Source of the DNA: a virus
Taxonomy: Duplodnaviria; Caudoviricetes
IMG/VR virus record: IMGVR_UViG_3300020379_000218
Location: 1 to 64,000 of that record
DNA length: 64,000 bases
Reading direction: 5' to 3' (one strand)
The notes beneath the pieces are model-generated. The model saw only the letters and a program-made list of their open reading frames with translations. It was not told where the DNA came from and did no database searches. Made by a program: the position numbers and the translations under genes. Below are positions 1-64,000 of the stretch, one piece after another (the stretch's first letter is position 1; every line of letters starts with the position of its first letter).

Positions 1-1
1 A

Positions 2-190
2 ATGATAAAAGAATATTTAAAAATTATAGGTCTTGGTATACTTGCAATACTATTTCATTGGAAGACAATTGCATTTTATGGATTTATGGCGTTTGCTTTT
101 GTACTAATGATGTTAGAACAAGGTTTCGTTGCGGCTCTTATTGTAATACCTATTCTATACTTCTTACGACTTATAGGTAAGTTTCTATGA
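2..190 (+). CDS. Small hydrophobic membrane protein (start may lie upstream of the window)
   Basis: 62-aa ORF, mostly hydrophobic; stop overlaps next ATG (ATGA at 187-190). Confidence 0.6.
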   Translation: MIKEYLKIIGLGILAILFHWKTIAFYGFMAFAFVLMMLEQGFVAALIVIPILYFLRLIGKFL

Positions 191-489
191 CACCAGAAGA
201 ATTACAAGAAACAATTGAAAAGATTAAATTCATACTAGACGATAAAGTTGCACCTAGTGTAGCTGCACATAATGGTAAGATTAACTTTCTTTCTTTTTCA
301 CAAGAAGGAGTGTTAACATTACAAATGGCAGGAAGTTGTGCTGGGTGTGCTATGTCTCAACTTACTTTAAAACAAGGTGTTGAAAGTATGATGAAACATT
401 ATTGTCCAGAAGTCAAGCAAATCATTTCAGAAGATGATACACAAGCTGCTGAACAAGGTTACACACCTTACGCACCTACCTTAAAATAG
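187..489 (+). CDS. NifU C-terminal / Nfu-type Fe-S cluster carrier protein
   Basis: VAPSVAAHNGKI...LQMAGSCAGCAMSQLTLKQGVE matches the NifU-C/NfuA CxxC signature. Confidence 0.9.
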   Translation: MTPEELQETIEKIKFILDDKVAPSVAAHNGKINFLSFSQEGVLTLQMAGSCAGCAMSQLTLKQGVESMMKHYCPEVKQIISEDDTQAAEQGYTPYAPTLK

Positions 490-570
490 TCCAGGTATAC
501 AGACTAAAGTTTCTGACACGATACAGCCAGCAAAACTGACTAAACCATAAATCATCAAAAAAGTAATCAT
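481..570 (-). CDS. 29-aa hydrophobic peptide MITFLMIYGLVSFAGCIVSETLVCIPGLF
   Basis: Manual translation; AAAGG upstream; ATG overlaps the TGA of the upstream ORF; below ORF-track size cutoff. Confidence 0.5.
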   Translation of the reverse strand: MITFLMIYGLVSFAGCIVSETLVCIPGLF

Positions 571-758
571 TTATTGTACCTTTCATAATGGCTCTTATCT
601 ACGCAATAAAAGGCTTTGTGTTGTGGATATTCTTTTTTAGCGAGGCGATGAGCAGATTGACAATTGGGAAAGTCCCCTAGCATCCGCATATCTTTTGATT
701 CAAAATCAAAATAACCGTAGCCTGATAACCAGACTACGGCAACAAAGGATTGTAATAT
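567..758 (-). CDS. 63-aa hypothetical protein with probable non-canonical ATA start (alternative ATG at 689)
   Basis: Open frame 758->567; GGAG 7 nt before ATA; stop overlaps next ATG; hydrophobic N-terminus and two Cys. Confidence 0.5.
   Translation of the reverse strand: MLQSFVAVVWLSGYGYFDFESKDMRMLGDFPNCQSAHRLAKKEYPQHKAFYCVDKSHYERYNK
715..739 (-). other. 10-bp GC-rich stem-loop (terminator-like or translational control element)
   Basis: Minus strand CCGTAGTCTG-gttat-CAGGCTACGG (one G-U pair) followed by TTATTTTG. Confidence 0.55.
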
Positions 759-782
759 GAATATTCTCCGTTAAGATTATTA

Positions 783-1061
783 TTATGAAGCTAACTTCAT
801 TAAAGAATAAGGCACGGTCCATTTACCACGACCTTCTTCCATAACTACAGCTTTCTTCGGGTTACATTTAACAATAACTCCGTGATGTTGTTTACCACGA
901 GGTCTGCCAAATATCACTTTTGCTCCGACAGCAAACTTGTTAATGTCTTCGGCTTTTGCTTTCGCAATACAAGCCTCAACAATATAAAGATGTTCTTTAT
1001 GACTAGGTTCTCTAATCCAGTCTAACACTTTATTTAAATCATTAAATTTCACTTCTGACAT
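783..1061 (-). CDS. Hypothetical protein with SH3/KOW-like C-terminal half
   Basis: 92-aa ORF with AGGAG RBS; FAVGAKVIF...GVIVKCNPKKAVV...WTVPYSL pattern. Confidence 0.7.
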   Translation of the reverse strand: MSEVKFNDLNKVLDWIREPSHKEHLYIVEACIAKAKAEDINKFAVGAKVIFGRPRGKQHHGVIVKCNPKKAVVMEEGRGKWTVPYSLMKLAS

Positions 1062-1073
1062 AATATACTCCTT

Positions 1074-1436: not shown

Positions 1437-1437
1437 A

Positions 1438-1617: not shown

Positions 1618-1655
1618 AGTGTTTTGTCCTTTCGTTTTATTCATAATATACATAC

Positions 1656-2569: not shown

Positions 2570-2995
2570 ATGGCATTCTACGATTCAAAAGCAAGCACTA
2601 GTAAAAAAAGAGTAAATAGGATTTATTCTGATTTAGACCTAGATTTCACAAGAAATCCGGTTACAGGAGATGTGGTTAAACTTATTGATGTAGACGCTGT
2701 TAAAAGAAGTGTAAAGAATTTAATACAAACAAATCATTATGAGAGACCTTTTCATCCTGAAATAGGAAGTGATGTAAGAGCATTGTTATTTGAAAATATG
2801 ACGCCGTTAACTGCTCTTAATTTAGAAAGAAAAGTTGCTGAGGTTTTAATTAACTTTGAACCAAGAGCAAGTATTGAAAGTATCGTTGCAAGTCCTGATA
2901 TAGACGCAAATAGATACCACTTACAAATTAGTTTCTATGTTGTAGGTATTCAATCACCAATCGTAGTAGAAACATTTTTACAAAGGTTAAGATAG
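2570..2995 (+). CDS. gp25: Baseplate wedge subunit gp25
   Basis: YSDLDLDF...AVKRSVKNLIQTNHYERPFHPEIGS...FEPRA. Confidence 0.93.
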   Translation: MAFYDSKASTSKKRVNRIYSDLDLDFTRNPVTGDVVKLIDVDAVKRSVKNLIQTNHYERPFHPEIGSDVRALLFENMTPLTALNLERKVAEVLINFEPRASIESIVASPDIDANRYHLQISFYVVGIQSPIVVETFLQRLR

Positions 2996-4849
2996 ATGGC
3001 AAGTACAAAACTAGATATTACAGAACTGGATTTTGACCAGATAAAACAAAATTTAAAAGTATTCTTACAAGCACAACCTGAATTTTCAGACTACAACTTT
3101 GAAGGTAGTGGTTTCGCTGTTCTATTAGACTTACTTGCTTACAATACACACTATCTAGGTTTCAATGCTAATATGTTAGCAAACGAAATGTATTTGGATT
3201 CTGCTGATGTTAGAGCAAATGTAGTTTCACTTGCTAAGATGTTAGGTTATACACCTGCAAGTGCAAAAGCACCTGTAGCAAATATTGATGTTGTTGTCAA
3301 TGACGCAACAGGAACAACTTTAACAATGAATAAAGGTACGGTGTTTACTTCTTCTGTAGACGGAACAACTTATAACTTTATTACTAATACAGATACAACA
3401 ACTTCACCTGTTGATGGTGTATTTAAATTTTCTAGTATACCTGTTTACGAAGGTACACCAGTAACCTTTAGATATACGGTTGACACACAAGACCCAGACC
3501 AAAAATATATAATACCTAGTGTAAACGCTGATACAACTACACTACAAATAAAAGTACAAAAGAGTTTAAATGACCAAACTTCTGAAACATATACAGGTGT
3601 TTCTGGATTATTAAAATTAAATAACGAAAGTCAAATATACTTCTTATCAGAAACAGATACAGGTAAATTTGAAGTTAAGTTTGGTGATGGTATTATCGGT
3701 AAGAAATTAGAACACGGTAATATCGTAATTATGGATTATATCGTAACCAATAGGTCAGAAGCGAATGGTGCTAAACTATTTAATCCTGCTGGTAATATTG
3801 GTTCGTTTTCAAATATCACGGTTACTACCGTATCAGAAGCACAAGGTGGTTCAGCACCTGAAACAAAAGAGAGTATTCGTTTCAATGCGCCACTTCAATA
3901 TACTGCACAAGATAGAGCGGTAACAACTTCTGATTATGAAACAAAAGTAATATCAATTTATCCTAACACACAATCAGTTAGTGCTTGGGGAGGTGAAGAT
4001 GACGAAACACCAGTTTACGGTGTTGTAAAAATCGCAATCAAACCTACTTCAGGTTCTACACTAACAACACAAACAAAAGCAGATATAGTTTCACAATTAA
4101 AAGAATATAATGTTGCTTCGGTAACACCTCAAATTGTGGATCCTGAAATAACAAGTATTGTTTTAAATTCAACTGCAAAGTATAATGAAAGAGCAACTAC
4201 TAAAGACGCTGAAACAATTAAAGCAGATATTATTAGTACATTAGGTAAATACAATGTATCAACTTTACAAAAATTTGATAGTATGTTTAGACACTCTAAA
4301 GTTATCAAAGAGATTGATGATACAGACCAAAGTATACTATCTAACATCACAACATTAAAAGTAAGAAAATCATTTGCCCCTACATTAAATTCATCTTTGA
4401 AGTATAACATTTACTTTAGAAATGCAATTTATAATCCACATATGGGACATAATTCATCAATGGGTGGTGTGGTTACATCTACTGGTTTTAAAGTAGCAGG
4501 TTCTACTTTTGAACAATTTTTAGATGATGATGGTAATGGAAATATAAGAGCATACTATCTATCAGGTGCAACTAGAGTTTATACTAACTCAACACAAGGT
4601 ACGATTGATTATACAACTGGTGCAATTACAATTAATTCATTACAGATTACAGAAATTTCAAATATAAGAGGGAGTGCTTCAACGGTGATAGAAGTAACCG
4701 TGCAACCTGCTTCAAACGATATTGTTCCTGTTAGAGACCAGATTTTAGAGTTAGATATTACTAACTCAACGATTAAGGTTGAGAAGGATTCCTTTGTCGG
4801 AGGAAGCTCGGATGCTGGTGTCGGTTATACTACCACTTCTGCATATTAA
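2996..4849 (+). CDS. gp6: Baseplate wedge subunit gp6
   Basis: LDFDQIK...DYNFEGS..LLDLLAYNTHY; FGDGIIG; QDRAVTTSDY. Confidence 0.93.
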   Translation: MASTKLDITELDFDQIKQNLKVFLQAQPEFSDYNFEGSGFAVLLDLLAYNTHYLGFNANMLANEMYLDSADVRANVVSLAKMLGYTPASAKAPVANIDVVVNDATGTTLTMNKGTVFTSSVDGTTYNFITNTDTTTSPVDGVFKFSSIPVYEGTPVTFRYTVDTQDPDQKYIIPSVNADTTTLQIKVQKSLNDQTSETYTGVSGLLKLNNESQIYFLSETDTGKFEVKFGDGIIGKKLEHGNIVIMDYIVTNRSEANGAKLFNPAGNIGSFSNITVTTVSEAQGGSAPETKESIRFNAPLQYTAQDRAVTTSDYETKVISIYPNTQSVSAWGGEDDETPVYGVVKIAIKPTSGSTLTTQTKADIVSQLKEYNVASVTPQIVDPEITSIVLNSTAKYNERATTKDAETIKADIISTLGKYNVSTLQKFDSMFRHSKVIKEIDDTDQSILSNITTLKVRKSFAPTLNSSLKYNIYFRNAIYNPHMGHNSSMGGVVTSTGFKVAGSTFEQFLDDDGNGNIRAYYLSGATRVYTNSTQGTIDYTTGAITINSLQITEISNIRGSASTVIEVTVQPASNDIVPVRDQILELDITNSTIKVEKDSFVGGSSDAGVGYTTTSAY

Positions 4850-13600: not shown

Positions 13601-16600
13601 ATGAGTTAAGAGATACACTAGATTTTAGACCACGAGTAGATGACGCAAGTACAATTAACTCTGGTGGCAACGATAGAAGTTTTGATGGCACAGGTGCTTC
13701 AACGGTTGATGTTGTTAAATTTAAAACAAATGTAACCACAGACCACGAATTTTATAAAGGAAGAGTAGACAAATTATTCTTAAACAAAGAAGGTACTTTT
13801 GAAGTACTTAAAGGTGCTGAAGATAGTATACCACAAGAACCTGGTTCTATTGATAACGCAATGCACCTTTACACTATTTCTTTACCACCATACACATTAT
13901 CTCCAGATAATGTATCGTATGAGACGGTAGAAAATAGAAGATACACAATGAGAGATATTGGTGCTATTGATAAGAAAATTGATAGAATAGAATATTACAC
14001 TCAATTGTCTCTATTAGAAAGTGCCGCTCAATCTTTACAAATACAAGACGCTGATGGTTTTGATAGATTTAAAAATGGTTTCGTAGTAGATAACTTTAAC
14101 GGTCACGGTATCGGTGAAGTAACCAATGGTTCATACAGATGTTCTATTGACTATGCAAGAGGTGAGTTAAGACCTTTATTCAACCAAGACGCTGTAAAAC
14201 TAGAAGAGATTGACGAAGATGGTACAACACTTGTTGATACTGATAGAGCAGCTGCAAACTATCAGAAGACTGGTGATTTATTAACATTACCATATACAGA
14301 AAAAGATTTAATTAATCAACCTTTTGCTTCAAAAGCAATTAATGTTAACCCATTTGCAATTTTCAGTTGGATGGGTACAATTGACTTAACACCTTCAAGT
14401 GATGAATGGAGAGAAACACAAAGAACTCCTGATTTAGTTGTAAATTCTGATACAGGTGCTTGGGATCAATTACAAAGACAAACAGGTATTACAGACCAAG
14501 ATGAGATTTCACTTGGTACGGTTTGGAACGAATGGCAAACTAACTGGACTGGTGCTCCGTTAACTTCAACGGTTACAGGTACTGGTGGAACATTTAGAAG
14601 TGGTCGTGCAATTGTAAGAAGAACTGAAATTACAAGTATTAACCAAGTTAACCAAAGTAGAACAGGTATTACAACTACTGCTGTTCCACAAACGGTTAGA
14701 ACTTCTATGGGTGATAGAGTTGTATCAGTTGCTTTCGTACCATTTATCAGAAGCCGTGATGTTGAATTTGTTGCAACAAGATTAAAACCAAATACAAGAG
14801 TATTTCCATTCTTTGACAATGTAAGTATTGCTCAATACATTACACCAACAGGTGGTGCATTAGGTGGTAACTTAATTACAGATGACAATGGTTCTGTATC
14901 AGGAACATTTACTATACCGGATCCAAAAATAGAAACTAATCCTAGATGGAGAACTGGAGAAAGAACATTTAGATTAACTTCTTCTTCAACAAACTCTTCG
15001 GACGCAGCTGCTGTTGCTACTGCGGCTAATGCTGAATATATCGCAAGAGGATTATTAAATACCGTTAGAGATACAATTGTTTCTACAAGAGAGTTTAGAG
15101 GTGTACAACAAACGGTTACAGATTCACAAACAATCTTACAAACAAGTACAAGACAAGGTACTCAAATTATAGGTTGGACAGACCCACTATCTCAAACATT
15201 TATGACAGATGAACAAGGTGGTGTTTTCTTATCTTCTGTAGATTTATATTTCTCAACAAAAGATTCTTCTATACCAATAACTATACAAGTTAGAAATACG
15301 GTCAATGGTTATCCTGGAAGTAAAATATTACCATTTGGTGAGGTTACAATAAATCCATCTGCTGTAAATACAAGTACTGATGGTTCAGTAAAAACAACAT
15401 TTACATTCCCATCGCCTGTTTACATACAAGATAAAGTTGAATACGCATTAACGGTGTTATCTAACTCAAACGAATATAATATGTATGTAGGTAGATTAGG
15501 AGAAACTAATTTAGGTTCTAATAGAACAATATCTAAACAACCATACGCTGGTGTATTATTTAAATCTCAAAACGGTTCTACTTGGACTGCTGAACAAAAC
15601 GAAGATATGAAATTCGTTATGAAAAGATGTGAGTTTAATAATGTAGTAGGTACGGTTCATTTAGGTAGTAAAGAATTACCAGCACAAACATTAAAACAAA
15701 ATGGTTTAAGAACAACAAATGGTTCTGGTGTAATTAGAGTATTCTTTAAAAATCATAACTTACACGATACAAATTCTGTGGTTACAATTGCTGGTGTTCC
15801 TAATGGTACACACAATGGTATCGCACATACAGATATTAATGGAACATACACAACTATTTCTAATATAACTTTAGATAGTTTTGATATTACTGCTCAAAAT
15901 TCTGCTACTGCAAATACTGATGGCGACATTGGTGGCACAGCAGTAACCTGCACAGGTAATAAACAATTTGATGTATTAAACTTAGCAGGTATTCAAACTA
16001 TGACGGTACCTGGTACAAGTTTAGCACCATTTATTAGAACAACAACTAGTAAATCAATTCACGGTACACAAACACCGTATCTATTAACTAGTGAAAGTAA
16101 TAGACAATCGGTTACATTGGCAGATGACATTTACTTTACTGCACCTCAAGCAGTTATGTCAGGACCTAATGAAACAACTAGAATGTCAGGACAAAAATCT
16201 TTCTATACTATTATAAGAATGGCAACAATTAATACTAAATTGTCTCCTGTAATTGATTTAGATAGAAGTAGTGTATTCTGTGTTTCAAACAGATTGAATG
16301 ACCCAACAAGTGGTAATACACCAAACTATGTTGCTGAAACTTCTGCAAATGGTTCATCAACTGCGTCTCAATATATTACTAAACCGATTACACTTGTAAA
16401 CAACTCAACTGCTTTAGATATTAGATTGACACAAGTAGTTAGAGATACTTCTAAAGTTGAAGTTTATTTTAGAACTTCATCAGCAGACGAAGTAAGAGGT
16501 ATCGGAGATATTGATTGGACACCTTTCAATGCAAATGGTGTTGAAGATGAATCTGTTGCAAAATCTAAAAATGATGATGACTTTAGAGAATACAAATATT

Positions 16601-18263: not shown

Positions 18264-18743
18264 ATGGACGAACAAACCCAATTGTGGATTTCCAGATTAA
18301 AAGAGGAAATTCAATCACACGACAGATACGAAGCAAGACAATTATTCTACATAGATGACGAAGGACTTGACCGTGAGGTTAAAGAACATATGACTTATGG
18401 AGAATGGTTAAGAGAATTTGAAAGATTCAAAACTATCAAGGTGGAAGGTTTAGAAGATGTGGCCTGGTTAAGAGAAGTTTTAGATGAAGTTGTATTGAAT
18501 ATCACAGGTAAGAAAAGACAAGATATTCATTTATTTGTAAATCAAAAACCAGGTGTTAGTTTTAGAGAACACAAAGATGATAAAGATGTTTACTTATATG
18601 TTGTAAAAGGCAAGAAAAAAGTATCATTGAACGGTGAAGTTAAACCAGTATATGATGACGAAGGTATATTGATTGAACAAGGCGTTAAACACTTTGTAGA
18701 TAATGAAGCAGATACTTGGGGGTTAAGTATCGGAGTTGTATAA
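18264..18743 (+). CDS. Cupin/JmjC (Cupin_4, ROX-like) Fe(II)/2OG oxygenase
   Basis: IHLFVN..GVSFREHKDDKDVYLYVVKGKK...GVKH: HxD...H facial triad; GGAG RBS. Confidence 0.75.
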   Translation: MDEQTQLWISRLKEEIQSHDRYEARQLFYIDDEGLDREVKEHMTYGEWLREFERFKTIKVEGLEDVAWLREVLDEVVLNITGKKRQDIHLFVNQKPGVSFREHKDDKDVYLYVVKGKKKVSLNGEVKPVYDDEGILIEQGVKHFVDNEADTWGLSIGVV

Positions 18744-19774
18744 TGAATTGGATGTTTTATCTTAAAACAACCGAGACCTGCAATCTAAATTGTAAACATT
18801 GTTTTACTTCAGGTATCAATGGTCCTAAAGTCTACTGGAATCCAGATAAGATTATCAAGTGGCTTAAAAATTTCAGAAAATATAATTTTCAAAAACACGA
18901 TACAGCACATTTAGAACTACACGGTGGCGAACCGTTTTTAGTTCCTGTGTCTGAAATGCAATATGTCTATGACGCCACAAAGAATTTGTGGGAACAACAA
19001 TCAATGGGCATAACTTCCAATCTAGTTTTCAAACTTAAACAAGAACATATTGACTTTATCAAAGGTCCATTAGGTAATAGATGTGGAACAAGTTGGGATC
19101 CTAATATAAGATTTGCAAATGAGAAACAAGCAAACTTATGGCGTAAGAATGTAGAGACATTAATCGCCGAAGGTGTCAATATTAAACTTTTTATTTCAGT
19201 AACCAAAGACACAATTAGAATTGAACCTATTGAATTACTAAAATGGGTAAGAGATTTGGGTGTAAAAGAAATGGCACTAGAAAGATTGACTGGAAATGGT
19301 AATGCAAACTTACATCCAGAGATATTTCCTAGTAATATAGAACAAGACAAGTGGTTTTTGAAAATGCACGAACAATCTATTGAGTATAATACAAGAGATT
19401 GGTTTGAAAATGAGTTTTTTGAGACAATTTATTCAAAATTTGAGTATGGTTCAACAAAAGATGGCACATTTTGCCGAGATTGTGAACAAAAACTATTTAC
19501 ACTTAACGCAACAGGCACAATAGGCGGTTGTCCTAACGCAGCTCCCGAGTTTAATTTTGGAACTTTAGATGACCCTCTAGTAGAACTTATAAATAGTCCT
19601 AAGAGATTAGAAAATGTTGCTTGTGAAGTGGCAAGGAACCCTAAATGCTTTGATTGTGAAGTATTTAAATATTGTGGAGGCGACTGCCATCAATTAGAAT
19701 GGCAAGGTAATGTATGTGGTGCTCCTAAATCTCTTATGAAGCACTTAAAGAAACAAAGTGAGGCGAAATGGTAA
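18743..19774 (+). CDS. Radical SAM/SPASM enzyme 1
   Basis: CNLNCKHC (CX3CX2C), HGGEP, C-terminal CRDC...GGCP...CFDC..FKYCGGDC...C; TAATG coupling at 18743. Confidence 0.92.
   Translation: MNWMFYLKTTETCNLNCKHCFTSGINGPKVYWNPDKIIKWLKNFRKYNFQKHDTAHLELHGGEPFLVPVSEMQYVYDATKNLWEQQSMGITSNLVFKLKQEHIDFIKGPLGNRCGTSWDPNIRFANEKQANLWRKNVETLIAEGVNIKLFISVTKDTIRIEPIELLKWVRDLGVKEMALERLTGNGNANLHPEIFPSNIEQDKWFLKMHEQSIEYNTRDWFENEFFETIYSKFEYGSTKDGTFCRDCEQKLFTLNATGTIGGCPNAAPEFNFGTLDDPLVELINSPKRLENVACEVARNPKCFDCEVFKYCGGDCHQLEWQGNVCGAPKSLMKHLKKQSEAKW
19588..19595 (+). promoter_or_regulatory. Candidate internal late promoter upstream of the CHxS-repeat gene
   Basis: Exact TATAAATA inside rSAM1, ~170 nt before ATG 19768; could be chance. 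Confidence 0.35.
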
Positions 19775-20541
19775 CTTTAAATAACCCGATAACGAGTCAA
19801 AACATAGTAGATAGATTTGAGGAACTGGTAACTGATATAGCAGACCACCATATTGTATGGGGTACTGATAATTTACCTGGTCACTCGGCATTTTCTGCTT
19901 CTGATTTTGGTGGAGTTGTTGATGGATTTAATCTTAACTTGATAAATGTATCAGGTTCTTATACTCAAAACGAAACCGTAACCGGTTCTATTACAGGTAC
20001 AATAGGTACCGTAGTTAGTTGGTCTAACAATGTATTAAAAGTTAGAAACATAGTACCAGGTTCTGGTCAAACAGGATTTTTACAAAACGATATTATATCT
20101 GGAACTAATTCTGGTGCTGTAGGTTCTGTAAATACTTTTAACGAAGTAAATGCTGTATCTATCGGTATCACAGGTTCATCTATTGGTAATGCAGGTTCAT
20201 TAATTACTGCAAACCAAATTTATACTACACTTAAAAATGAAATGAACACTTATACTAATATTAAAAACACAAACGCTGTAGTTAATATGACAGGTGCAGG
20301 ACAACAATATTCAGATACACAAATTGCACACTTACCAACATCACAAAGAACAACTTTAAATCCAAGTCAACCTAGTAGTTTACAAGCAGGTCAAACTATT
20401 GATGATAACAACTTGGAAGGTTTCTTTTCAACACTTGCAAACTCTTATAATACTGAAAGAGGAAACACTTATACATTGACAAAAACTATTTGCCACAGCA
20501 GTTGCCACGGTAGTTGCCACGGAAGTAGAGGAAGAAGATAA
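19768..20541 (+). CDS. Virion-structural-like protein with C-terminal Cys/His/Ser repeat; putative rSAM substrate
   Basis: Central GSYTQNETVTGSITGTIGTVVSW module like those in gp7/gp8; ends TICHSSCHGSCHGSRGRR; GAGG RBS. Confidence 0.75.
   Translation: MVTLNNPITSQNIVDRFEELVTDIADHHIVWGTDNLPGHSAFSASDFGGVVDGFNLNLINVSGSYTQNETVTGSITGTIGTVVSWSNNVLKVRNIVPGSGQTGFLQNDIISGTNSGAVGSVNTFNEVNAVSIGITGSSIGNAGSLITANQIYTTLKNEMNTYTNIKNTNAVVNMTGAGQQYSDTQIAHLPTSQRTTLNPSQPSSLQAGQTIDDNNLEGFFSTLANSYNTERGNTYTLTKTICHSSCHGSCHGSRGRR
20491..20526 (+). repeat. 3 x 12-nt tandem repeat encoding (C-H-x-S)3
   Basis: tgccacagcagt tgccacggtagt tgccacggaagt. Confidence 0.95.
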
Positions 20542-21233
20542 TGATTGAATCTATAGTACCAATTGAATTAAAAGACTTAAAAAAATACTTTGAAGACAAA
20601 ACAGAAACTTATCTATTAGACTATGAAAACAGCACATTGAAAGGTGCTCAGTTTTTGACATATTTAAGTAATTTAGATATACCTTGTGATATTAAGAATA
20701 TGGACGAAGAACTAATAAGTGAGTATCTTAAATCTCAAATGTTAGTTAGTATACCTAAATTAGAGAAAGAAATAATTGCTGTATTATTTGAACACAAAGG
20801 GTTGACAAAGACAGATAAATATAAGAGTGTTATAGAAGAGAACAAAGAGATACTTGACAAATGGGCAGGTAAATTAGAAAGTCTACCATTATATAATATG
20901 TCAATTGTCGGTGAAGGTGCTTTCAATGATTTTGTTGAGAGTTATCCTAAAGACGAAACAGAAGATGTAAGAGGTATCAACTTTGTTTCATTATTGAAAC
21001 ACAAAGAATTTTATAGTTATTATCAAATGCCAAAAGAAAACATTGTTAAGAATTATACAAAGTACTTTAAAGAATATATGTTTAAAGGTAAATCTTTATT
21101 TGAATATTGGGCAAACGCAAGTAACCCATTATTCTTAATGACTTGGGCAGTTGCTGAAGGCAAGTTTGATAGTAAAGAATATAACAAAAGGAAAATGGAA
21201 GGTGTACAAAATCTTCCACTAGAGAGTAAATAA
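20541..21233 (+). CDS. Hypothetical protein in rSAM cluster
   Basis: 230-aa ORF, TAATG-coupled to the CHxS gene; no recognisable motif. Confidence 0.8.
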   Translation: MIESIVPIELKDLKKYFEDKTETYLLDYENSTLKGAQFLTYLSNLDIPCDIKNMDEELISEYLKSQMLVSIPKLEKEIIAVLFEHKGLTKTDKYKSVIEENKEILDKWAGKLESLPLYNMSIVGEGAFNDFVESYPKDETEDVRGINFVSLLKHKEFYSYYQMPKENIVKNYTKYFKEYMFKGKSLFEYWANASNPLFLMTWAVAEGKFDSKEYNKRKMEGVQNLPLESK

Positions 21234-21234
21234 T

Positions 21235-22350
21235 ATGCTACACTTATTTAATAAAGTTTATTTAGCGTTTGACGATTCAATAGATTGTCATACTAACAGA
21301 TATGTAATATCAGAAGAAGTTGGTAATGAAATGCACCAAGAACTTCAAAGTACATATAGAGGTAGTTTACTTAATTACGCAAAAAATAAAAACGAAATGC
21401 AAGGTAAGTTTGGTGACTTAACTGGTTTCTTTGAAGATGTAAATACTAAACAGAAATCATTAGGAACTAAAGTTATCATTTACTGCGATAGTCAAGCATA
21501 CCTAGAAATATCTGTAACCTGGTTAAAAACTATGTTGCCGTATGCTGAAAGTGCTGAAATACAAAAGTTTTTAGATATTCATTTACACCACGAAAAAATT
21601 ATTGCAAATACACAACTACAACCTACTCATACTTTAGCACTAACTAAATTAAATTCAGGATTAGGAAATGTAAGTGGTTATTTCAATGTTTTACCAACAC
21701 TTGATATAGATAGAATAAAAGCTCTTAATTTAAATTTCTCAATTGAATTATTGTTAGGCGAATACTTTGCTGGTGCTGATACTCACCAAGCAAATTTATT
21801 GTCTACTTGGCATATGTTCTTAAAAAGATTTTATAAAGAAGTGTTGACAGATAGTAGAGAAGGTGCTGCTCTTAATCTTTTAAATAGTAATCAACAAACT
21901 GCGTTAGGTTATACTAGTGATGATGTTGATTTGAATGCTGATAATCCATTTACAGGAATTACACCATTAGCACCATTTGCTGACGAAGATGTATTCACAC
22001 AAAAACCTACTGCAACGGTCGGTGCTGTGAATATTGCAAACATAGATGGTCTTTCTACAGAAAAACAAACTGCATTGAAAACTTTAGTTAAAGACTTATA
22101 TGATTTCCAGAACTCTCCGGATCCTGATTACTTTATGAACCATTTAGATAAAGCTTGTGATTCAAGTTTATCTGCTGAAGATTTTGATACAATTATTACT
22201 GAAACGGTGAATAGTCCATCTAGTCTATCTTATATCCCTAGATTTGATATTGGAAATATAAACTATACTTTCTTACAATATCTTTTCTCATTGAAAAAAT
22301 CTAACGATACAGACACATTAGGAAAATACAGACTATTCGCAAACTCATAG
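21235..22350 (+). CDS. Hypothetical protein in rSAM cluster
   Basis: 371-aa ORF; KVIIYCD weakly recalls a degenerate protein-phosphatase P-loop. Confidence 0.8.
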   Translation: MLHLFNKVYLAFDDSIDCHTNRYVISEEVGNEMHQELQSTYRGSLLNYAKNKNEMQGKFGDLTGFFEDVNTKQKSLGTKVIIYCDSQAYLEISVTWLKTMLPYAESAEIQKFLDIHLHHEKIIANTQLQPTHTLALTKLNSGLGNVSGYFNVLPTLDIDRIKALNLNFSIELLLGEYFAGADTHQANLLSTWHMFLKRFYKEVLTDSREGAALNLLNSNQQTALGYTSDDVDLNADNPFTGITPLAPFADEDVFTQKPTATVGAVNIANIDGLSTEKQTALKTLVKDLYDFQNSPDPDYFMNHLDKACDSSLSAEDFDTIITETVNSPSSLSYIPRFDIGNINYTFLQYLFSLKKSNDTDTLGKYRLFANS

Positions 22351-22358
22351 GAGTTTAA

Positions 22359-23411
22359 ATGCGAGAGTTTTTAATAGACCCGAAAAGAGACCCAGAGCAA
22401 GAGTACACAATTCACTTATTTGAATTTTGTAATCTGCGTTGTGCTTTCTGTTGGCAAAACCACGAAGATACAATCGGTATTGATAATGTGGTTGATAAAC
22501 TTCCATCTATAGAAAAATTTGTTTCAAAAGAAATGTATATGAAAGTCACCTTTAATATTATGGGTGGCGAAGTCTTTGCACCTGCAATCTATAACAGAAA
22601 TTTAAACGAAGGTTATAAACTTCTATCAAAAGGCATACAAAAGATATGTCAAAGGTACGATAAAGAATTTTCAATCAATTGGGTATCTAACTTGGTTACA
22701 TCACCTGATGGTAATGAACTCATTATGGACTTACTTAAATGGTCCAGAGAAGAAGATATACCTTGTAGACTTACAACAAGTTATGACCCACGAGGTAGAT
22801 TTAATAAAAAAGACTTTGAGATATTTAAATCTAATGTAGAATATTGGGGTGATGAAGTTACCTGTTTCTCTTGTCTACTTACAAAACCTAATATAAACTT
22901 TTATTTAAATGAAGGCGATGAATACTTTGATTATTTGTATAATCAAGGTAAGTACATATATTTTGATTATTATATGCCAGATGAACACGCAAAATATAAT
23001 ATGCCTAGTGATGAACTATTATTAAAGTTTTTTAAACATTGTGTTGACAAATATCCAAATGTTCATCCTGTAAGAGACTGGATATTTAATAAAAAGAATT
23101 ATGCAAGTTGTAGAGTATCTAAACTTGTTTTAGCAGATGGTACATTATGTCAATGTGGTAACCTTGTACAAGATGAGAAATCATTAAGTCAATATAAGTC
23201 GCCCATTAAAAGAAAAGACAATAGTATTATAGAAAACTCTTTCCTAGAGAAATATAATTGTAGTAGTTGTGAATTTTTAGATAGATGTACACTTGGCTGT
23301 TTTATGAACCACGATTATAGATATAAGGAGGAGTTGGATGAATGTGTTTACAAACTTACGCACAGATATATTGAAGATGTACGACTACAGCGAAACTATA
23401 TCGCAAACTAA
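22359..23411 (+). CDS. Radical SAM/SPASM enzyme 2
   Basis: CNLRCAFC, MGGEVF, C-terminal C...DGTLCQC...CSSCEFLDRCTLGC...C; GGAG RBS. Confidence 0.92.
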   Translation: MREFLIDPKRDPEQEYTIHLFEFCNLRCAFCWQNHEDTIGIDNVVDKLPSIEKFVSKEMYMKVTFNIMGGEVFAPAIYNRNLNEGYKLLSKGIQKICQRYDKEFSINWVSNLVTSPDGNELIMDLLKWSREEDIPCRLTTSYDPRGRFNKKDFEIFKSNVEYWGDEVTCFSCLLTKPNINFYLNEGDEYFDYLYNQGKYIYFDYYMPDEHAKYNMPSDELLLKFFKHCVDKYPNVHPVRDWIFNKKNYASCRVSKLVLADGTLCQCGNLVQDEKSLSQYKSPIKRKDNSIIENSFLEKYNCSSCEFLDRCTLGCFMNHDYRYKEELDECVYKLTHRYIEDVRLQRNYIAN

Positions 23412-23967
23412 TTATTTCAATTTTCCTAAACATATAGAAGTACAACTAGATAACTTTCCTGTAGAGAAACCATATCTACCTAGAATAGATGGTAGACAAG
23501 CACATATGTTTTTATGGTTAGGCAAGAAAGAAGAAGATGGTGAACTATATGAGATTGCAAAGAAAACTAAAGGCGAAAGACAATGGGTTCAAAACAAGAC
23601 GCCAGGCACATTTATTAAGGGCGTAGGAATGTTTCATATCTATGACGAGTATGTTATAGTCGGTTCTTTGAAATATGCCGGTTATATGAAGAATAGACCT
23701 GCAAAAGAAAATAGACATTTAATAAGAACTATGTGGTGTGAGACTATAAACATATTTAAAGATAAAGATATATTGTGTCCTTCAGGTACTTACTTTGATT
23801 GGTTACATTTAACAATGAATCAAATGAGAGCACAAAAAGAACCATATCATAGAGAAATAATGTGGCAGTTTGGATTTGATAAAATTGTTGAAGGTAAATT
23901 AAAAGATTATTGGATTAGAAGAAAAGAAAATAAAACTGGACTTGACTGGATAGGAAGATGGACTTAA
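23338..23967 (+). CDS. Hypothetical protein in rSAM cluster (alternative start 23377)
   Basis: 209-aa ORF; AAGGAGGAG before ATG; overlaps both neighbours. Confidence 0.7.
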   Translation: MNVFTNLRTDILKMYDYSETISQTNYFNFPKHIEVQLDNFPVEKPYLPRIDGRQAHMFLWLGKKEEDGELYEIAKKTKGERQWVQNKTPGTFIKGVGMFHIYDEYVIVGSLKYAGYMKNRPAKENRHLIRTMWCETINIFKDKDILCPSGTYFDWLHLTMNQMRAQKEPYHREIMWQFGFDKIVEGKLKDYWIRRKENKTGLDWIGRWT

Positions 23968-25052
23968 TTATAAAACCTACTGAACTTTGTAATTTTAAGT
24001 GTACCTTTTGTTCAAGTACACAACTTACAAATGAGAAAAAGAACTGGTTGAAACACGACCAGATATTTCGTTTTTTAGAAAGATTTCCAGAAACTAAAAC
24101 TATAATAGTAAATGGTGGTGACCCATTGATGATGGCACCTGATTACTACTGGAAGATTATTGAATGGTTAGATAATAAAGGTTATGATACTTCACTTGCA
24201 TTAACAACTAACTTGTGGCCTTTCTATAAGAAACCTAAACTATGGGTTGACTTATTTAATAATGATAGAGTAGGTATTACAACTTCTTTTCAATATGGTG
24301 GTGGTAGATTAAAAGGAGACTATTCAGAATTTACAGAAGAAGACTTTTGGAAGTGTTCAGATACTATGTTAGAGTATTGTGGTTATAGACCAGATTTTAT
24401 ATCTGTTATCACAAGAGAAAATGAACACAACGCAATTAAGAATGTTGAACTTGCAAAAAGAATGTCAGAAGATAAAATGCCAGAAGGTACTTTACATAAC
24501 TTTTGGCGAGAAGAAAAGACAGGCGTAGAATGTAAGTTAAATTATGCAATGGCAAGTGGTGAACAAAAAGAGCCTTTTTTGTTATCAGATATATATGAGA
24601 AGTATGTAGAAATCTATAGGGCAGGTTTAGCACCTTGGGAGTTTAATACTAGACAGATGATGTTAGCAATCAACGATAGTGCTACAAGTTGTCCGTTAAG
24701 TAGAAAATGTGATGAAGGTATTAGATGTTTACAACCAGATGGCGATTACTATAGTTGTGGTGCTTTTGGTGATGATAAAGATAAGTCTATAGATTTTGAA
24801 GAAGAAATGAAAGGTAAGTTTTTTACACCTTTACAAGATAGTTTAGAGTTAACTACAATGAAAAAGAATTGTTATAGTTGCCCTATGTTTAATATATGTA
24901 ATGGTTGTAGAAAGACAATTAAAGATTATAAAGAAGCAGGAGTTGTAGAAAAACATTGTGAGAAAATGAAAAGAATAGGACACGATATTTTAATCGCAAA
25001 TAATAAACCTCACATATCAATGACACCTTATGAGAGAGAATATGCAAGTTAA
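23958..25052 (+). CDS. Radical SAM/SPASM enzyme 3
   Basis: IIKPTELCNFKCTFC, NGGDP, C-terminal CPLSRKC...DGDYYSC...CYSCPMFNICNGC...C. Confidence 0.92.
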   Translation: MDLIIKPTELCNFKCTFCSSTQLTNEKKNWLKHDQIFRFLERFPETKTIIVNGGDPLMMAPDYYWKIIEWLDNKGYDTSLALTTNLWPFYKKPKLWVDLFNNDRVGITTSFQYGGGRLKGDYSEFTEEDFWKCSDTMLEYCGYRPDFISVITRENEHNAIKNVELAKRMSEDKMPEGTLHNFWREEKTGVECKLNYAMASGEQKEPFLLSDIYEKYVEIYRAGLAPWEFNTRQMMLAINDSATSCPLSRKCDEGIRCLQPDGDYYSCGAFGDDKDKSIDFEEEMKGKFFTPLQDSLELTTMKKNCYSCPMFNICNGCRKTIKDYKEAGVVEKHCEKMKRIGHDILIANNKPHISMTPYEREYAS

Positions 25053-25494
25053 ACATAATGTATTAACAAACTTGGAACTTAATCATATGATAAGTGAACT
25101 AGGTAATCTAGGCAAAGATTATCCTATCTATGAAAAGAATGTACATAAGAAATTACCAGATGATTGGAAATGGGCAGATAGTATCTGTAAATTAAATGTA
25201 CCTAATGTAAAACATTGTATCGTTAGGTATGTTATCGCTGTAAATAGTAAAGATGAAGAAAAGAATATTATAGGGTTTCATACAGACAGCGATGTAAAAG
25301 GAGAAAAAACTATTATATTATATTTACAAGGTGATAGTAATAAAGGTGGTCAAATACAAGTTGAAGATAAGACTTATGACTTTAGACAAAACGCAATGTT
25401 TATTATGGACTCTCATTTAGTACATAGGGCAATGCCTTATTGGGGAGAAAAAACAAGACTTGCAATTAAATGGAGATGGACTTGTGAGGGGTGA
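25030..25494 (+). CDS. 2OG-Fe(II) oxygenase (start possibly 25042)
   Basis: FHTDSD...IILYL...GGQ...LVHRA...R: HxD...H...R. Confidence 0.8.
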   Translation: MRENMQVKHNVLTNLELNHMISELGNLGKDYPIYEKNVHKKLPDDWKWADSICKLNVPNVKHCIVRYVIAVNSKDEEKNIIGFHTDSDVKGEKTIILYLQGDSNKGGQIQVEDKTYDFRQNAMFIMDSHLVHRAMPYWGEKTRLAIKWRWTCEG

Positions 25495-26005
25495 ACACGA
25501 TTTATCAAACTTAATAATAAATGGAGTATGGCCACATAAAGACCTTGCACCTTTTAAATTCTTTGAAGGTGTACAGATACCTTTTGTAGAAACGAAAGGA
25601 GAGTATACGGTTGCTGTTCATACTGAAAAGGTTGCACACGCACTTACCACAACCCACAAATATTTGGGTGATAAATATATTAGTAAGTTGTCTAGTAGAT
25701 ATACATTACACGGACGACCTGAAATTGTCAATGGTGTAGATAAAGAAAGTACACTTTGGCACAATGACTTGAAAGAAGGAGCAAACATTGCTATATTAAT
25801 GTACTTTACAAATGCTTGTAATAAGAAACAAGGTGGTTCTTTATCAGTTAGAAATAAAGAAACAAAAGAATTATCTTGTTGGTTATATCCAGGTAAGAAC
25901 GATTTAATATTTTTAAATCATAGTAAAGTATGGGAACATAGAGTTGGTAAATTCAAACTAATTGATAGTGAAAGAATTGTAGGATGTTTTAATTATAATA
26001 TATGA
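25484..26005 (+). CDS. 2OG-Fe(II) oxygenase
   Basis: WHND...ILMYF...GGSL...WEHRV...RIV; GTG start with GGAG RBS. Confidence 0.8.
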   Translation: MRGEHDLSNLIINGVWPHKDLAPFKFFEGVQIPFVETKGEYTVAVHTEKVAHALTTTHKYLGDKYISKLSSRYTLHGRPEIVNGVDKESTLWHNDLKEGANIAILMYFTNACNKKQGGSLSVRNKETKELSCWLYPGKNDLIFLNHSKVWEHRVGKFKLIDSERIVGCFNYNI

Positions 26006-26577
26006 AAAATAAGATATTTCCAAACGGCAGAATACACGCCTCAAAAGAACAAGATTTAGATTACTCAAATGGATACCTTGCGTTATCAGTAAGTCCATTT
26101 GACAATAACTTTGACAATGAAGTTGAGAAAGGTGTATTACCTCATTGCCACGCACTTATTAGAAAAGGTTATCTTCCAATATCAAGTTGCGAAGGACACT
26201 TTACTAAAAAACACCATATGCCATTTTATGTAATGTTAGCAGTTGGTGGTAAAAACAAATTAGATAGAATATACGATATAATAAACAAGACAAAACATAT
26301 ACCTGGTATATCATATAAAATTAAAGAACAACAAGCAAATGTAAGAGGTGAACTATTAGAAAGAGTAAACTATAGTTTAGATAAAGCAGAAGAGTATGCT
26401 GAACTAAACAGATTGTTTATGAGAAATCATTTAGAGTATAATTATCTCTGGATAGGTTTATTTCAAAGTGATAAGAAATTATCAGAAAGAATTTTAAGAA
26501 GACTTATGTTTAGTAGATGTAAGAAAATGTTATTGAATAGTATTGAGGTGTTGAACTATGACGAAGCCGAAGATTAA
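26002..26577 (+). CDS. Hypothetical protein with SSCEGH motif
   Basis: ALIRKGYLPISSCEGH; ATGA coupling. Confidence 0.75.
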   Translation: MKNKIFPNGRIHASKEQDLDYSNGYLALSVSPFDNNFDNEVEKGVLPHCHALIRKGYLPISSCEGHFTKKHHMPFYVMLAVGGKNKLDRIYDIINKTKHIPGISYKIKEQQANVRGELLERVNYSLDKAEEYAELNRLFMRNHLEYNYLWIGLFQSDKKLSERILRRLMFSRCKKMLLNSIEVLNYDEAED

Positions 26578-28283: not shown

Positions 28284-28656
28284 ATTAAATCCTACTCATA
28301 AAGATACATTGAACGATAAGGAGATATATCTTATATGGGAAGATAATGATATAATTCTAAATGCAAAAAGACATTGGGTAGAACAGGTAGATAGATTTAT
28401 CTATCCTGCAAAGAGTTATTGCGTAGCGATATGTTATGCAAAGTGGATAGAGAGAGATTATGGAGATAACTTTTACGACTTGTTAAACGATAAAGACTTG
28501 TTGTATGGTAATGACCCTTACTTTGAAATATACAATGGGAAGAAACACATTTATGACCCAATCATAGAAGCGTTTCCTAAAGATGAACAATTGGGAATGA
28601 TACCAGATATTAGAGACTATTATGAAAAAGAAATACGATATGACGGTGGAATCTAA
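28246..28656 (+). CDS. Hypothetical protein ending the rSAM cluster
   Basis: 136-aa ORF overlapping previous gene; YPAKSYCVAICYA. Confidence 0.75.
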   Translation: MKEWKLKQEVYHRLNPTHKDTLNDKEIYLIWEDNDIILNAKRHWVEQVDRFIYPAKSYCVAICYAKWIERDYGDNFYDLLNDKDLLYGNDPYFEIYNGKKHIYDPIIEAFPKDEQLGMIPDIRDYYEKEIRYDGGI

Positions 28657-61461: not shown

Positions 61462-61464
61462 TAT

Positions 61465-61472
61465 TATAAATA
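61465..61472 (+). promoter_or_regulatory. T4-type late promoter
   Basis: TATAAATA, intergenic. Confidence 0.8.
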
Positions 61473-61531
61473 TCTTATAACAAAACAAGAAAATAATTAT
61501 TTTTTTTAAAAGAAATAAGGAGAACTTCAAT

Positions 61532-62710
61532 ATGGCCGAGACAGAAAAACAAGTTGCCGAAATGACAGCTCCAGACGCTCCTAAAAAGAACGCCGTAGCT
61601 GCTGAAACTTCACCGTTAAAAAATGACGCTGAAGATTTAGGTGCTGCTGTAGTAAAACCTACAGATAGCAATCCAGACGCAACAAAAAAAGTTAAAGAAG
61701 TTTCAGGTGACGCACAGCAAAAAAACGCTGGTTCTGCTGAACCAATGCCTTCTGTAAAGAAGGAAGAAACTGCTTCTGAAGGCGAGAAGATTTCCGAGGG
61801 AGAAATGCCTGACGGTCTGAAAAAATTCCTAGATAAAAAGAAAGAAAAAGAAGAAACTAAAAAAGAAGGCTATAAGATGAAAAAAGAATCTGAAGCTGAA
61901 AAAGTGGACTCTAAATCTGAAAAATCTGAGGAAACAGCTGACCAGAAAGCAAAAGATGTTGATGTAAAAGAACACATTGACGCTTTGACCTCTGGCGAAT
62001 CAGACTTGTCGGAAGAATTTAAAACGAAAGCTGCTACTATTTTTGAAGCTGCGATTAAATCTAAAGTAAAAGAAATCGCTGAAGAAATGGAAGTAGACTA
62101 CAATAAGAAATTTGAAGAAGAAAGTGCTAAAGCAAAATCTGAACTTGTTGAAAAAGTTGACAATTACTTAAACTATGTTGTAAACGAGTGGATGAAAGAA
62201 AACGAACTTGCTATTGAAAAAGGTATCAAGGGAGAAATTGCTGAGGACTTCATCAACGGTCTGAAAAAACTTTTTGAAGACCATTATATTGATGTACCTG
62301 ATGAAAAATATGATGTGTTAGAAGACCAAGCTTCAAAAATTGAGTCGTTAGAGAAAAAACTAAACGAACAGATTGCGAAGAATGTTGACTTGAATAGTAA
62401 GGCTAACTTACTTGAAAAATCTGACATTTTAGCTGATGTTGCTTCTGATTTAACAGATGTCTCTAAAGAGAAATTTGCTAAACTTACAGAAGAAGTTGAA
62501 TTTTCAACGGCTGAAGATTTTAGAAACAAGGTAACTACTATCAAAGAAAGTTATTTTGGTGCTAAAAAAGAAGCTAATTCTGACAGCGAAGTAGATAATG
62601 CGGTAGCTGATAATGCTGGTGTAGACAATACGCAAGACTTATCTAGTGCAATGGCTGCTTATACTACCGCTATTAGTAAAACAAAAGACATTAAATTGTC
62701 TATAAAATAA
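61532..62710 (+). CDS. gp22: Prohead core scaffold gp22
   Basis: LSEEFKTKAATIFEAA; YLNYVVNEWM.EN; IKESYF. Confidence 0.93.
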   Translation: MAETEKQVAEMTAPDAPKKNAVAAETSPLKNDAEDLGAAVVKPTDSNPDATKKVKEVSGDAQQKNAGSAEPMPSVKKEETASEGEKISEGEMPDGLKKFLDKKKEKEETKKEGYKMKKESEAEKVDSKSEKSEETADQKAKDVDVKEHIDALTSGESDLSEEFKTKAATIFEAAIKSKVKEIAEEMEVDYNKKFEEESAKAKSELVEKVDNYLNYVVNEWMKENELAIEKGIKGEIAEDFINGLKKLFEDHYIDVPDEKYDVLEDQASKIESLEKKLNEQIAKNVDLNSKANLLEKSDILADVASDLTDVSKEKFAKLTEEVEFSTAEDFRNKVTTIKESYFGAKKEANSDSEVDNAVADNAGVDNTQDLSSAMAAYTTAISKTKDIKLSIK

Positions 62711-62732
62711 TAATAGGAGAGAGGAACAAGAT

Positions 62733-64000
62733 ATGTACTTATCTGAAAACTACCAAAAAAAGTGGCAGCCAGTATTAGAGCATCCTGATTTACCAAAAAT
62801 CACGGATACTTATAAACGAGCTGTTACCAGTGTTATCCTTGAGAACCAAGAGAAAGCACTAAAAGAAGACGCTCAGTTTATGACTGAAACTGCGCCTACT
62901 AACTCAACAGGTTCTTCAATCGCTAACTGGGATCCAATTTTGATTTCATTAGTAAGAAGAGCAATGCCAAACCTTATCGCTTACGATATTGCTGGCGTTC
63001 AACCTATGAGCGGTCCTACTGGTCTTATATTTGCAATGAGAAGCAGATACAAAGCTCAGGACGGTACTGAAGCATTATTTGATGAAGCAGAATCACAATT
63101 CTCAGCTGCAGGAACTAAAGCAAACATTCCTGGTTCAGCTGGTACTTCTTCTGCTGGAGAAACTAACCCTGCTGTACTTAACGACTCATCACCTGGAGCA
63201 TACACTGCTGAAGGTGGAATGTCTACTGCTAACGCAGAAGCATTAGGAGACGGTTCAACATCTGGATACGAGCAATTTGCTGAAATGGCATTCTCAATTG
63301 AGAAGTCAACGGTAACTGCTAAGTCAAGAGCATTGAAAGCCGAGTACACAATGGAACTTGCACAAGACCTTAAAGCTATTCACGGTTTAGACGCTGAGTC
63401 TGAACTTGCGAATATTCTTTCTGCTGAAATCCTTGCTGAAATCAATAGAGAAGTTGTAAGAACTATCTATGTAAATTCAGAAAAAGGTGCTCAGACTGAC
63501 ACAACTACTGCTGGTATCTTTGATTTAGATACTGACTCAAACGGTAGATGGTCTGTTGAAAGATTTAAAGGACTTATGTTCCAATTAGAAAGAGACGCTA
63601 ACGCTATCGCACAAAGAACAAGAAGAGGAAAAGGTAACATAATTATCTGTTCTTCTGATGTTGCTAGTGCATTACAAATGGCTGGTGTTTTAGACTATAC
63701 ACCTGCATTAAACAACAATTTATCTGTTGATGACGCAGGAAACACTTTTGCTGGAGTATTAAACGGCAGATTTAAAGTGTACATTGATCCATATTCAGCG
63801 AACCAAGCTAGCAAACAATTCTATGTTGTTGGTTACAAAGGTACTTCACCTTATGACGCTGGTATGTTCTACTGCCCTTATGTACCATTACAAATGGTTA
63901 GAGCAGTTGGTCAGGACACTTTCCAACCGAAAATCGGTTTCAAAACTAGATACGGCCTACAAGCAAATCCTTTTGCTGAAGCTTCTTCTAGTACAGACGC
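62733..64000 (+). CDS. gp23: Major capsid protein gp23 (runs off window end; absent from ORF track)
   Basis: MYLSENYQKKWQPVLEH; LVRRAMPNLIAYDIAGVQPMSGPTGLIFAMR; KSRALKAEYTMELAQDLKAIHGLDAE; FYCPYVPL. Confidence 0.97.
   Translation, partial: MYLSENYQKKWQPVLEHPDLPKITDTYKRAVTSVILENQEKALKEDAQFMTETAPTNSTGSSIANWDPILISLVRRAMPNLIAYDIAGVQPMSGPTGLIFAMRSRYKAQDGTEALFDEAESQFSAAGTKANIPGSAGTSSAGETNPAVLNDSSPGAYTAEGGMSTANAEALGDGSTSGYEQFAEMAFSIEKSTVTAKSRALKAEYTMELAQDLKAIHGLDAESELANILSAEILAEINREVVRTIYVNSEKGAQTDTTTAGIFDLDTDSNGRWSVERFKGLMFQLERDANAIAQRTRRGKGNIIICSSDVASALQMAGVLDYTPALNNNLSVDDAGNTFAGVLNGRFKVYIDPYSANQASKQFYVVGYKGTSPYDAGMFYCPYVPLQMVRAVGQDTFQPKIGFKTRYGLQANPFAEASSSTD

Follow-up and report, generated by a model that had tools for sequence, protein, structure and literature searches.

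Restriction-site avoidance lifted at GG and CC steps in a pelagimyophage-like genome points to a probable phage-encoded DNA modification

The viral contig IMGVR_UViG_3300020379_000218 (Duplodnaviria; Caudoviricetes) is a linear IMG/VR record of 109,563 bp with a G+C content of 34% and a completeness of ~59% (CheckV). We analysed its first 64 kb, referred to here as the window (positions 1 to 64,000), in which the avoidance of many short restriction-type sites is waived where a site touches a GG or CC step. T4-like structural genes sit in the window. The replication genes, encoding the clamp, the clamp loader, RegA, a family B polymerase, UvsX, a gp41-like helicase and gp46/47, lie beyond it, as do a peptide deformylase gene and a CobS/CobT-like pair, and nearly all genes of the contig are on the same strand. 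The nearest cultured relative is Pelagibacter phage Mosig (MT647606); the DNA polymerases of the two are 66% identical and their gene orders syntenic. Near-identical sequence was found in the assembled contigs of 20 marine metagenome runs from 8 studies (2014-2025), and the contig therefore represents a real, abundant genotype of a pelagimyophage-like phage.

Five words, CATG, TCGA, ACGT, CGCG and ACWGT (W, A or T), do not occur at all in the window or in the whole contig, and ACSGT (S, C or G) occurs 199 times in the window. Other words persist only in certain company. All 23 copies of GATC in the window are preceded by G or followed by C, 14 of them being GGATCC, and the same holds for all 193 copies of GTNAC (N, any base); the four GATGC copies are all GGATGC and the five GCATC copies all GCATCC. 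Over the whole contig the flanked fractions are 28/28 for GATC and 249/249 for GTNAC. The original prediction, made by reading the letters, had held that GATC (~23 copies, with examples at 4139, 5349, 14464 and 63786, all correctly placed), GTNAC and GATGC/GCATC (9/9 on counting) survive only as GGATC/GATCC, GGTNAC/GTNACC and GGATGC/GCATCC, that ACNGT is confined to ACGGT and ACCGT, and that CATG, TCGA and ACGT are missing. The observation is confirmed and is stronger than first stated.

To obtain expected counts we used a codon-aware null of 200 synonymous-codon shuffles within each of 58 genes, which preserves the proteins and the codon usage. Against this null the absent words were expected in large numbers: 106±8 copies of CATG, 93±8 of TCGA, 122±8 of ACGT, 122±6 of ACWGT and 14±3 of CGCG (shuffle minimum 7). 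For the unflanked forms HGATCD and HGTNACD (H, not G; D, not C), 76±6 and 129±7 copies were expected and none was seen. The lowest of the 200 shuffles still held 60-112 copies of CATG, TCGA, ACGT, ACWGT, unflanked GATC and unflanked GTNAC, so that the codon-aware count proposed as a check places every one of these words far below expectation. The zeros hold for both strands and every frame, ~19 words are purged in total, and the depletion of short words against a composition-aware and codon-aware null is that of classical restriction-site avoidance. The shielded forms are in excess (GGTNAC/GTNACC, 205 versus 128±10; ACSGT, 199 versus 115±9). These flanked forms of GTNAC and ACSGT thus stand 1.6-1.7 times above the null, as expected if they had become the safe spelling. 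Control words are at null level (GTAC, 279 versus 280; CTAG, 155 versus 167; TTAA, 644 versus 625). Of the two controls named beforehand GTAC therefore serves as such, whereas GANTC is itself depleted (89 versus 154±8) and is not a clean control; AGCT is also below the null (88 versus 231). That codon usage, amino-acid content or functional motifs, rather than nuclease pressure, gave rise to the pattern can be regarded as refuted: GATCC does arise mostly from Asp-Pro codon pairs, yet the codon-preserving shuffle expects 76-130 copies where 0 are seen, and neither the zeros on both strands and in all frames nor the control palindromes at null level fit such an origin.

The rule extends well beyond GATC and GTNAC. 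In an unbiased scan for words restricted to certain neighbouring bases, GAGATG has a 5' G in 13 of 13 copies and GATATC a 5' G or 3' C in 4 of 4, and CTNAG, CACTG, CAGAG, CATCG and TCACG are present only with a G or C flank. WCTNAGW is absent where the codon null gives 50 copies and a first-order Markov estimate 176, and CACTG with A or T after it is absent where 119 copies are expected. Sites are rescued at GG or CC junctions, some of them also at GC, but none at CG: a preceding C never rescues a site that starts with G (C-GATC, 0 versus 43 expected). Words with no G or C able to form a rescuing junction, namely ACGT, TCGA, ACWGT, TCTAGA and TCAAGA, are missing in every context, and ATGCAT and TAGCTA are also absent. 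CATG is absent everywhere despite possible C-C and G-C junctions, and CCATGG gives no rescue. The proposal that the 3' G of GG, or its paired C, carries the shield agrees with these results for G-starting sites, for which C-GATC is missing, and with the intolerance of CCATGG. It proved too narrow for sites that start with C or end with G, for which rescue comes from CC/GG in the other register and, in part, from a GC junction. No further base preference was found on the far side of GG, and the context is therefore the bare dinucleotide. The contig holds 6,165 GG and CC steps, i.e. 56 per kb, comprising 17% of all G:C pairs.

The waiver recurs in related phages. In G001, a complete relative with terminal repeats (177,460 bp), all 121 GATC copies are flanked, CTNAG occurs only as G-CTNAG and GAGAC mostly as GAGAC-C (32/38). 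Among 53 uncultured relatives fetched through P0002, a methyltransferase-like protein of this contig described below, the avoided words CATG, ACGT, ACWGT, TCGA, AGCT and GTNAC vary between clades; in 48 of the 53 (642 kb) there are 270 GATC copies, with 0 unflanked versus 1001 expected. The cultured SAR11 myophage HTVC008M has 83 GATC copies, all flanked (~220 unflanked expected), and obeys the same CACTG and CATCG rules. In Mosig, GATC is exclusively GGATCC (19 versus 8.5 expected).

Other phages purge sites with no such exemption. The related OM43 myophage Melnitz has 23 GATC copies versus 440 expected, in mixed contexts and with no waiver. The SAR11 podophages HTVC019P and HTVC011P, isolated on the host strain that also yielded HTVC008M and Mosig, have 0 GATC where ~22 and ~21 flanked copies alone are expected, and the SAR11 podophage HTVC010P lacks CTNAG (0 versus 130) and GTSAC (0 versus 34), again with no waiver; the words avoided by the podophages of this host overlap with the set of this phage. 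A separate marine T4-like clade with neither of the candidate writer genes discussed below has 0 GATC versus 226 expected in 82 kb, of which ~63 would be flanked. The cyanomyophages P-SSM2 and Bellamy were considered as outgroups and set aside, as they do not avoid the informative G-starting sites and are silent on the waiver. Nucleases that ignored flanked sites would have left such sites in the podophages too; the waiver is therefore a heritable trait of one phage lineage. It belongs to that lineage and not to the host enzymes.

These results bear on two explanations that place the cause in the host. In the first, no modification exists and the host nucleases fail on targets with a 5' G or 3' C because of an extended or flank-sensitive specificity. 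Cleavage rates of some type II enzymes do depend on the flanks. However, at least ten unrelated sites follow the identical flank rule, relatives with other avoided sets retain it, and podophages of the same strain have lost GATC, CTNAG and GTSAC whatever the context. The asymmetry is moreover absolute, with a G-G junction rescuing and a C-G junction never doing so. We consider this explanation improbable. In the second, all DNA replicating in the cell, that of phages too, would be marked by a SAR11 methyltransferase of CC/GG-type specificity; we hold this to be very improbable. Host orphan methyltransferases do mark phage DNA. A 5-methylcytosine (m5C) motif of SAR11 could also have been missed, as m5C is poorly seen by single-molecule real-time sequencing (PMC8919816). 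Nevertheless, podophages replicating in the same strain show no waiver, and the SAR11 genomes in that marine methylome survey showed only GANTC/GAWTC.

Across so many unrelated sites, the data support one shared property of the DNA of this phage rather than a quirk of a single enzyme, and favour a covalent, context-specific modification as the simplest cause. That the phage itself encodes a modification with GG/CC context is, in our judgement, probable. In the mechanism we propose, the phage would mark its own DNA after replication at GG and CC steps, and at GC steps more weakly or in a site-dependent manner. A mark on the end base pair of a target, even if present on one strand only, would block restriction-type nucleases of the host. 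Selection would then remove those copies that lie out of reach of the mark (CATG, TCGA, ACGT, ACWGT, unflanked GATC, GTNAC and GATGC, and others), while flanked copies would be left in place or turned into the preferred synonymous spelling.

Two other chemistries were weighed against such a post-replicative mark. If all C (or all G) were replaced before replication, and if nucleases tolerated one modified base but were blocked by two neighbours, a similar footprint might result. T-even phages replace all C, and glucosylation of neighbouring hydroxymethylcytosines is context-dependent; in the present footprint the rescue always involves two adjacent G:C pairs. On the other hand, CG junctions never rescue although two modified bases would be adjacent there too, and the relatives carry a ThyX-type thymidylate synthase and ordinary nucleotide genes. 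No pathway modifying deoxycytidine monophosphate was recognised in the annotated genome parts, in which the thymidylate-synthase/hydroxymethylase family was not searched directly. Full replacement appears decidedly improbable. Extremely improbable is a 7-deazaguanine (preQ0, archaeosine or similar) inserted at the 3' G of GG by a DpdA transglycosylase, the parallel drawn by the original prediction. Motif-specific partial replacement of G is known, the DpdA of phage iggy having a strict GA motif and acting on 16.5% of G (PMC10484667), phage 9g carries dG+ (PMC5567051), and the share of G:C pairs in GG/CC position in this contig is of similar size (17%). However, the TGT/DpdA family (PF01702) has no match at E ≤ 1 in this contig (~59% complete), the complete G001 or the complete HTVC008M, all three of which show the footprint. 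It was without match in Melnitz also, and the search controls were found in 14 of 14 genomes. None of FolE, QueD, QueE and QueC was found among the 30 open reading frames (ORFs) of contig 64-109.6 kb scanned against Pfam, these families not being searched by accession.

Four methyltransferase-like proteins (P0001, P0002, P0004 and P0005) are encoded beyond the window, and two of these, P0002 and P0004, are paralogs with 30% identity over 178 residues and weak matches to PF01555. Both have the motif order of amino-methyltransferases, an S-adenosylmethionine (SAM)-binding motif I followed by motif IV, (S/D/N)PP(Y/F) (Table 1). Motif I followed by TSPPY is the usual signature of N4-cytosine enzymes. 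The predicted model of P0002 (predicted local distance difference test score, 79.5) has a class I SAM-dependent methyltransferase fold, and Foldseek relates it with probability 1.00 to Rossmann-fold methyltransferases, including the amino-methyltransferase Trm11, these matches being generic and not specific for DNA methyltransferases. The best cultured homolog of P0002, in Vibrio phage 2.058.O (33% identity), is an N4 cytosine methylase by annotation only, not by assay. P0002 and P0004 are the best candidates for the writer in this genome, an assignment that we regard as possible and put forward with reserve. Their expected target would be an exocyclic amine, for which N4 of cytosine is the simplest choice.

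P0002 lies in a hypervariable slot (contig 72787-77871, 8.8-13.9 kb past the end of the window) between the peptide deformylase and the CobT-like peptidase genes. In this phage the slot encodes an AspH-type oxygenase fusion, a pyridoxal phosphate (PLP) enzyme, a small 2-oxoglutarate (2OG)-like ORF, P0001 (TSLPD) and P0002 (TSPPY). Its contents in HTVC008M are a weak beta-glucosyltransferase-like ORF, a JmjC/cupin protein and a DruA-like protein (PF14236), and in Mosig a DruA-like protein and MazG. The position just upstream of the CobT-like peptidase is taken by P0002 in this phage and G001, and by a DruA-like protein in HTVC008M and Mosig. The PF14236 domain is classed as GNAT-fold in a published analysis; HTVC008M has two matches to it, the second away from the slot. 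With the Mosig and HTVC008M proteins as tblastn queries no DruA-like gene was found in this contig (~59% complete) or in G001, and PF14236 has no match in G001. P0002 and the DruA-like protein show no direct similarity by BLASTP. As DruA-like GNAT genes occupy the same slot in relatives without the P0002 family, the writer assignment is tentative.

We then surveyed 72 further loci around the peptidase gene and compared those purged of unflanked GATC. Purged loci with a P0002-family or DruA-like gene beside the CobT-like peptidase retain flanked GATC (37 seen, 180 expected), whereas purged loci that cover the slot and have neither gene retain none (0 seen, 63 expected). The survey is suggestive of a link between these genes and the waiver. 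It would be a rather unlikely but far-reaching extension that interchangeable enzymes in one slot, the SPPY methyltransferase here and the DruA-like GNAT acyltransferase in HTVC008M and Mosig, write the GG/CC mark on the exocyclic amine of the same base pair.

Table 1. Coordinates of representative sites and candidate genes (window numbering unless marked as contig).
Feature	Position	Strand	Remark
Purge signature	1..64000	.	CATG, TCGA, ACGT, CGCG, ACWGT, ATGCAT, TCTAGA, TAGCTA absent; other listed words flank-restricted
Doubly flanked GATC, GGATCC	4138..4143	.	form of 14/23 window GATC
Singly flanked GATC, GGATC then A	14463..14467	.	
Singly flanked GATC, GATCC after T	63786..63790	.	
Tolerated GTNAC, GGTTAC	457..462	.	
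GGATGC, sole form of GATGC	4810..4815	.	
ACCGT, tolerated ACNGT	714..718	.	N = C or G only
Tolerated CTNAG, G-CTGAG-G	2837..2843	.	
P0006, 278 aa	27447..28283	+	family in all four phages with the waiver, not in Melnitz or two cyanophages
P0002, SPPY-type methyltransferase (candidate)	contig 76687-77871, outside window		GYGGR then TSPPY
P0004, SPPY-type methyltransferase (candidate)	contig 93410-94645, outside window		GWGDR then TSPPY

Further candidates were examined and rejected. The MT-A70 adenine methyltransferase P0005 (DPPW) is absent from G001, HTVC008M and Melnitz and is no common writer. The beta-class methyltransferase-like P0001, with its atypical TSLPD, and the neighbouring GNAT-AspH, PLP and 2OG proteins have no homologs in HTVC008M or Mosig by tblastn, and no evidence ties them to DNA. 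A small (D/N)PPY ORF of HTVC008M and Mosig is helical, too short and present in Melnitz too, and the weak beta-glucosyltransferase-like ORF beside DruA is confined to HTVC008M. C5 methyltransferases (PF00145) have no match in this contig, G001 or HTVC008M. Genes common to the four phages with the waiver and missing from Melnitz encode mostly 2OG-Fe(II) oxygenases, CobS/CobT-like and ferredoxin-like proteins and the P0006 family. The predicted fold of P0006 resembles CstII-type sialyltransferases with modest scores (template modelling score ~0.4). Nothing connects P0006 to DNA, and it was rejected as the writer; it offers no more than a weak lead, and any substrate that it glycosylates may not be DNA. 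Its family comprises ~90 marine-metagenome clusters, has no Pfam domain, shows invariant residues that include G-N-G-x-S-R and G-H-D and is multi-copy in HTVC008M. In the ORF list, window 18264-28656 has radical SAM and 2OG oxygenase genes clustered between those for tail fibres.

Several points weigh against a phage-encoded GG/CC modification as set out above. The support for it consists throughout of sequence statistics. The profile of the P0002/P0004 family has no match in HTVC008M, Mosig or Melnitz, and the complete HTVC008M has the waiver, yet matches none of PF01555, PF00145, PF05063 and PF01702, so that the rule there does not depend on the methyltransferases of this phage. The association of writer genes with the waiver comes from few clades and is confounded by phylogeny, and it would be unexpected for two unrelated families, an SPPY methyltransferase and a DruA-like GNAT, to share one dinucleotide context. 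The GC step is also inconsistent in its effect: it is not protective within CGCG, ATGCAT, GCATC and TAGCTA, whereas a junction GC protects CTNAG, TCACG and CATCG, so that the details cannot all be accounted for by one simple motif. Finally, a survey of pelagimyophages reports a restriction-modification system in only one of more than 100 SAR11 genomes (PMC7029224). Either the selecting nucleases hide in poorly assembled variable regions of SAR11, or the selecting agents are not classical systems.

The footprint resembles phage restriction-site avoidance in that palindromic and type IIS-like words of 4-6 bp are strongly depleted and the avoided set differs among close relatives. It differs in that the avoidance is fully lifted, or reversed to excess, at copies touching GG/CC, and a total of ~19 purged words is extreme for phages whose host group reportedly has almost no restriction-modification systems (PMC7029224). 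The DpdA systems (the GA motif of iggy, the dG+ of 9g) share a partial mark in a short context, on about one sixth of G, which would shield overlapping sites; here, in contrast, the context is GG/CC and not GA, and DpdA/TGT is missing from the contig and two complete relatives.

The Mom protein of phage Mu has a GNAT fold and acts on adenine within a short, degenerate sequence context. Its post-replicative, context-dependent and partial mark against many restriction enzymes is akin to that proposed here, as are the GNAT-fold DruA-like genes in the HTVC008M and Mosig slot, but the present footprint is centred on G:C pairs and not on adenine. The Mom family (PF25680) has no match in this contig, G001, HTVC008M or Mosig and one in Melnitz, which has no waiver. 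The chlorella virus enzymes M.CviPII (CCD) and M.CviPI (GC) are C5 methyltransferases; they too place very frequent cytosine marks at motifs of 2-3 bp, whereas no PF00145 gene is present here.

To our knowledge, a plain CC-specific N4 methyltransferase has not been described. Marine Myoviridae-like viral genomes have many N4-methylcytosine (m4C) motifs, rich in CC/GG (CCNGG, GGWCC, GGHCC, CCWGG), their predicted methyltransferases are mostly of the m4C type, and the viral motif calls are often ambiguous (PMC8919816). Such ambiguity would fit a very short true motif, although the genomes of that survey could not be linked to this phage, and, unlike these systems, HTVC008M has the footprint with no recognisable methyltransferase. 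A literature search, incomplete in coverage, found no paper on flank-dependent site avoidance or DNA modification in pelagimyophages. Taken together, the phenomenon behaves as do the partial, context-specific DNA modifications already known from phages, and there is a real chance that its chemistry is new.

The genomes compared show some further regularities. For runs of GGG/CCC the observed/expected ratio is 0.47-0.57 in the four phages with the waiver, a stronger depletion than the 0.65-0.84 of Melnitz, the podophages and the cyanophages, and CAGGG, GGCCC and CCCGG are among the words absent from the contig and its relatives. GGATCC is about twice as frequent as expected (19 versus 8.5 in Mosig, 19 versus ~9.5 in this contig); its copies lie in coding DNA, mostly at Asp-Pro codon pairs, and their flanks are not shared. 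GANTC is the target of CcrM, the cell-cycle methyltransferase of Alphaproteobacteria, and is strongly avoided in the SAR11 phages HTVC008M, HTVC011P and HTVC019P. HTVC011P has 1 GAATC versus 54 expected and 0 GACTC versus 33, and in HTVC008M the six-letter words GAATCA (2 versus 82), GAGTCA (0 versus 53) and AGACTC (0 versus 44) are depleted. Melnitz (MZ577095) encodes a C5 cytosine methyltransferase and a Mom-family protein (2818-3918 and 68322-68933) and avoids GGACC, GGAGGA and CGACG instead. In the first 200 kb of Synechococcus phage Bellamy (NC_047838), GGCC is found only within TGGCCA (35 copies; elsewhere 0 versus 113 expected), which is another case of a site spared only inside a longer word; TGGCCA is listed as an m5C motif in the marine methylome survey.

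No bacteria are more abundant in the ocean than SAR11, whose large phages rank among its most abundant viruses. The footprint implies that these phages are under strong pressure from many site-specific nucleases, despite the reported near-lack of restriction-modification in SAR11, and that they answer it partly through a mark on a two-base step that would touch about one sixth of the G:C pairs. Neither implication was found in the literature searched. HTVC008M and Mosig are in culture, so that the claim is directly testable, and footprints of this kind offer a purely computational way of inferring in which context an unknown DNA modification of an uncultured virus occurs. If the two slot proteins were indeed interchangeable writers, they would represent a new class of phage DNA mark, and the DruA fold of the Druantia defence systems would gain its first biochemical function, with a bearing on how Druantia works. 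It would also mean that SAR11 populations hold a large unrecognised arsenal of site-specific nucleases.

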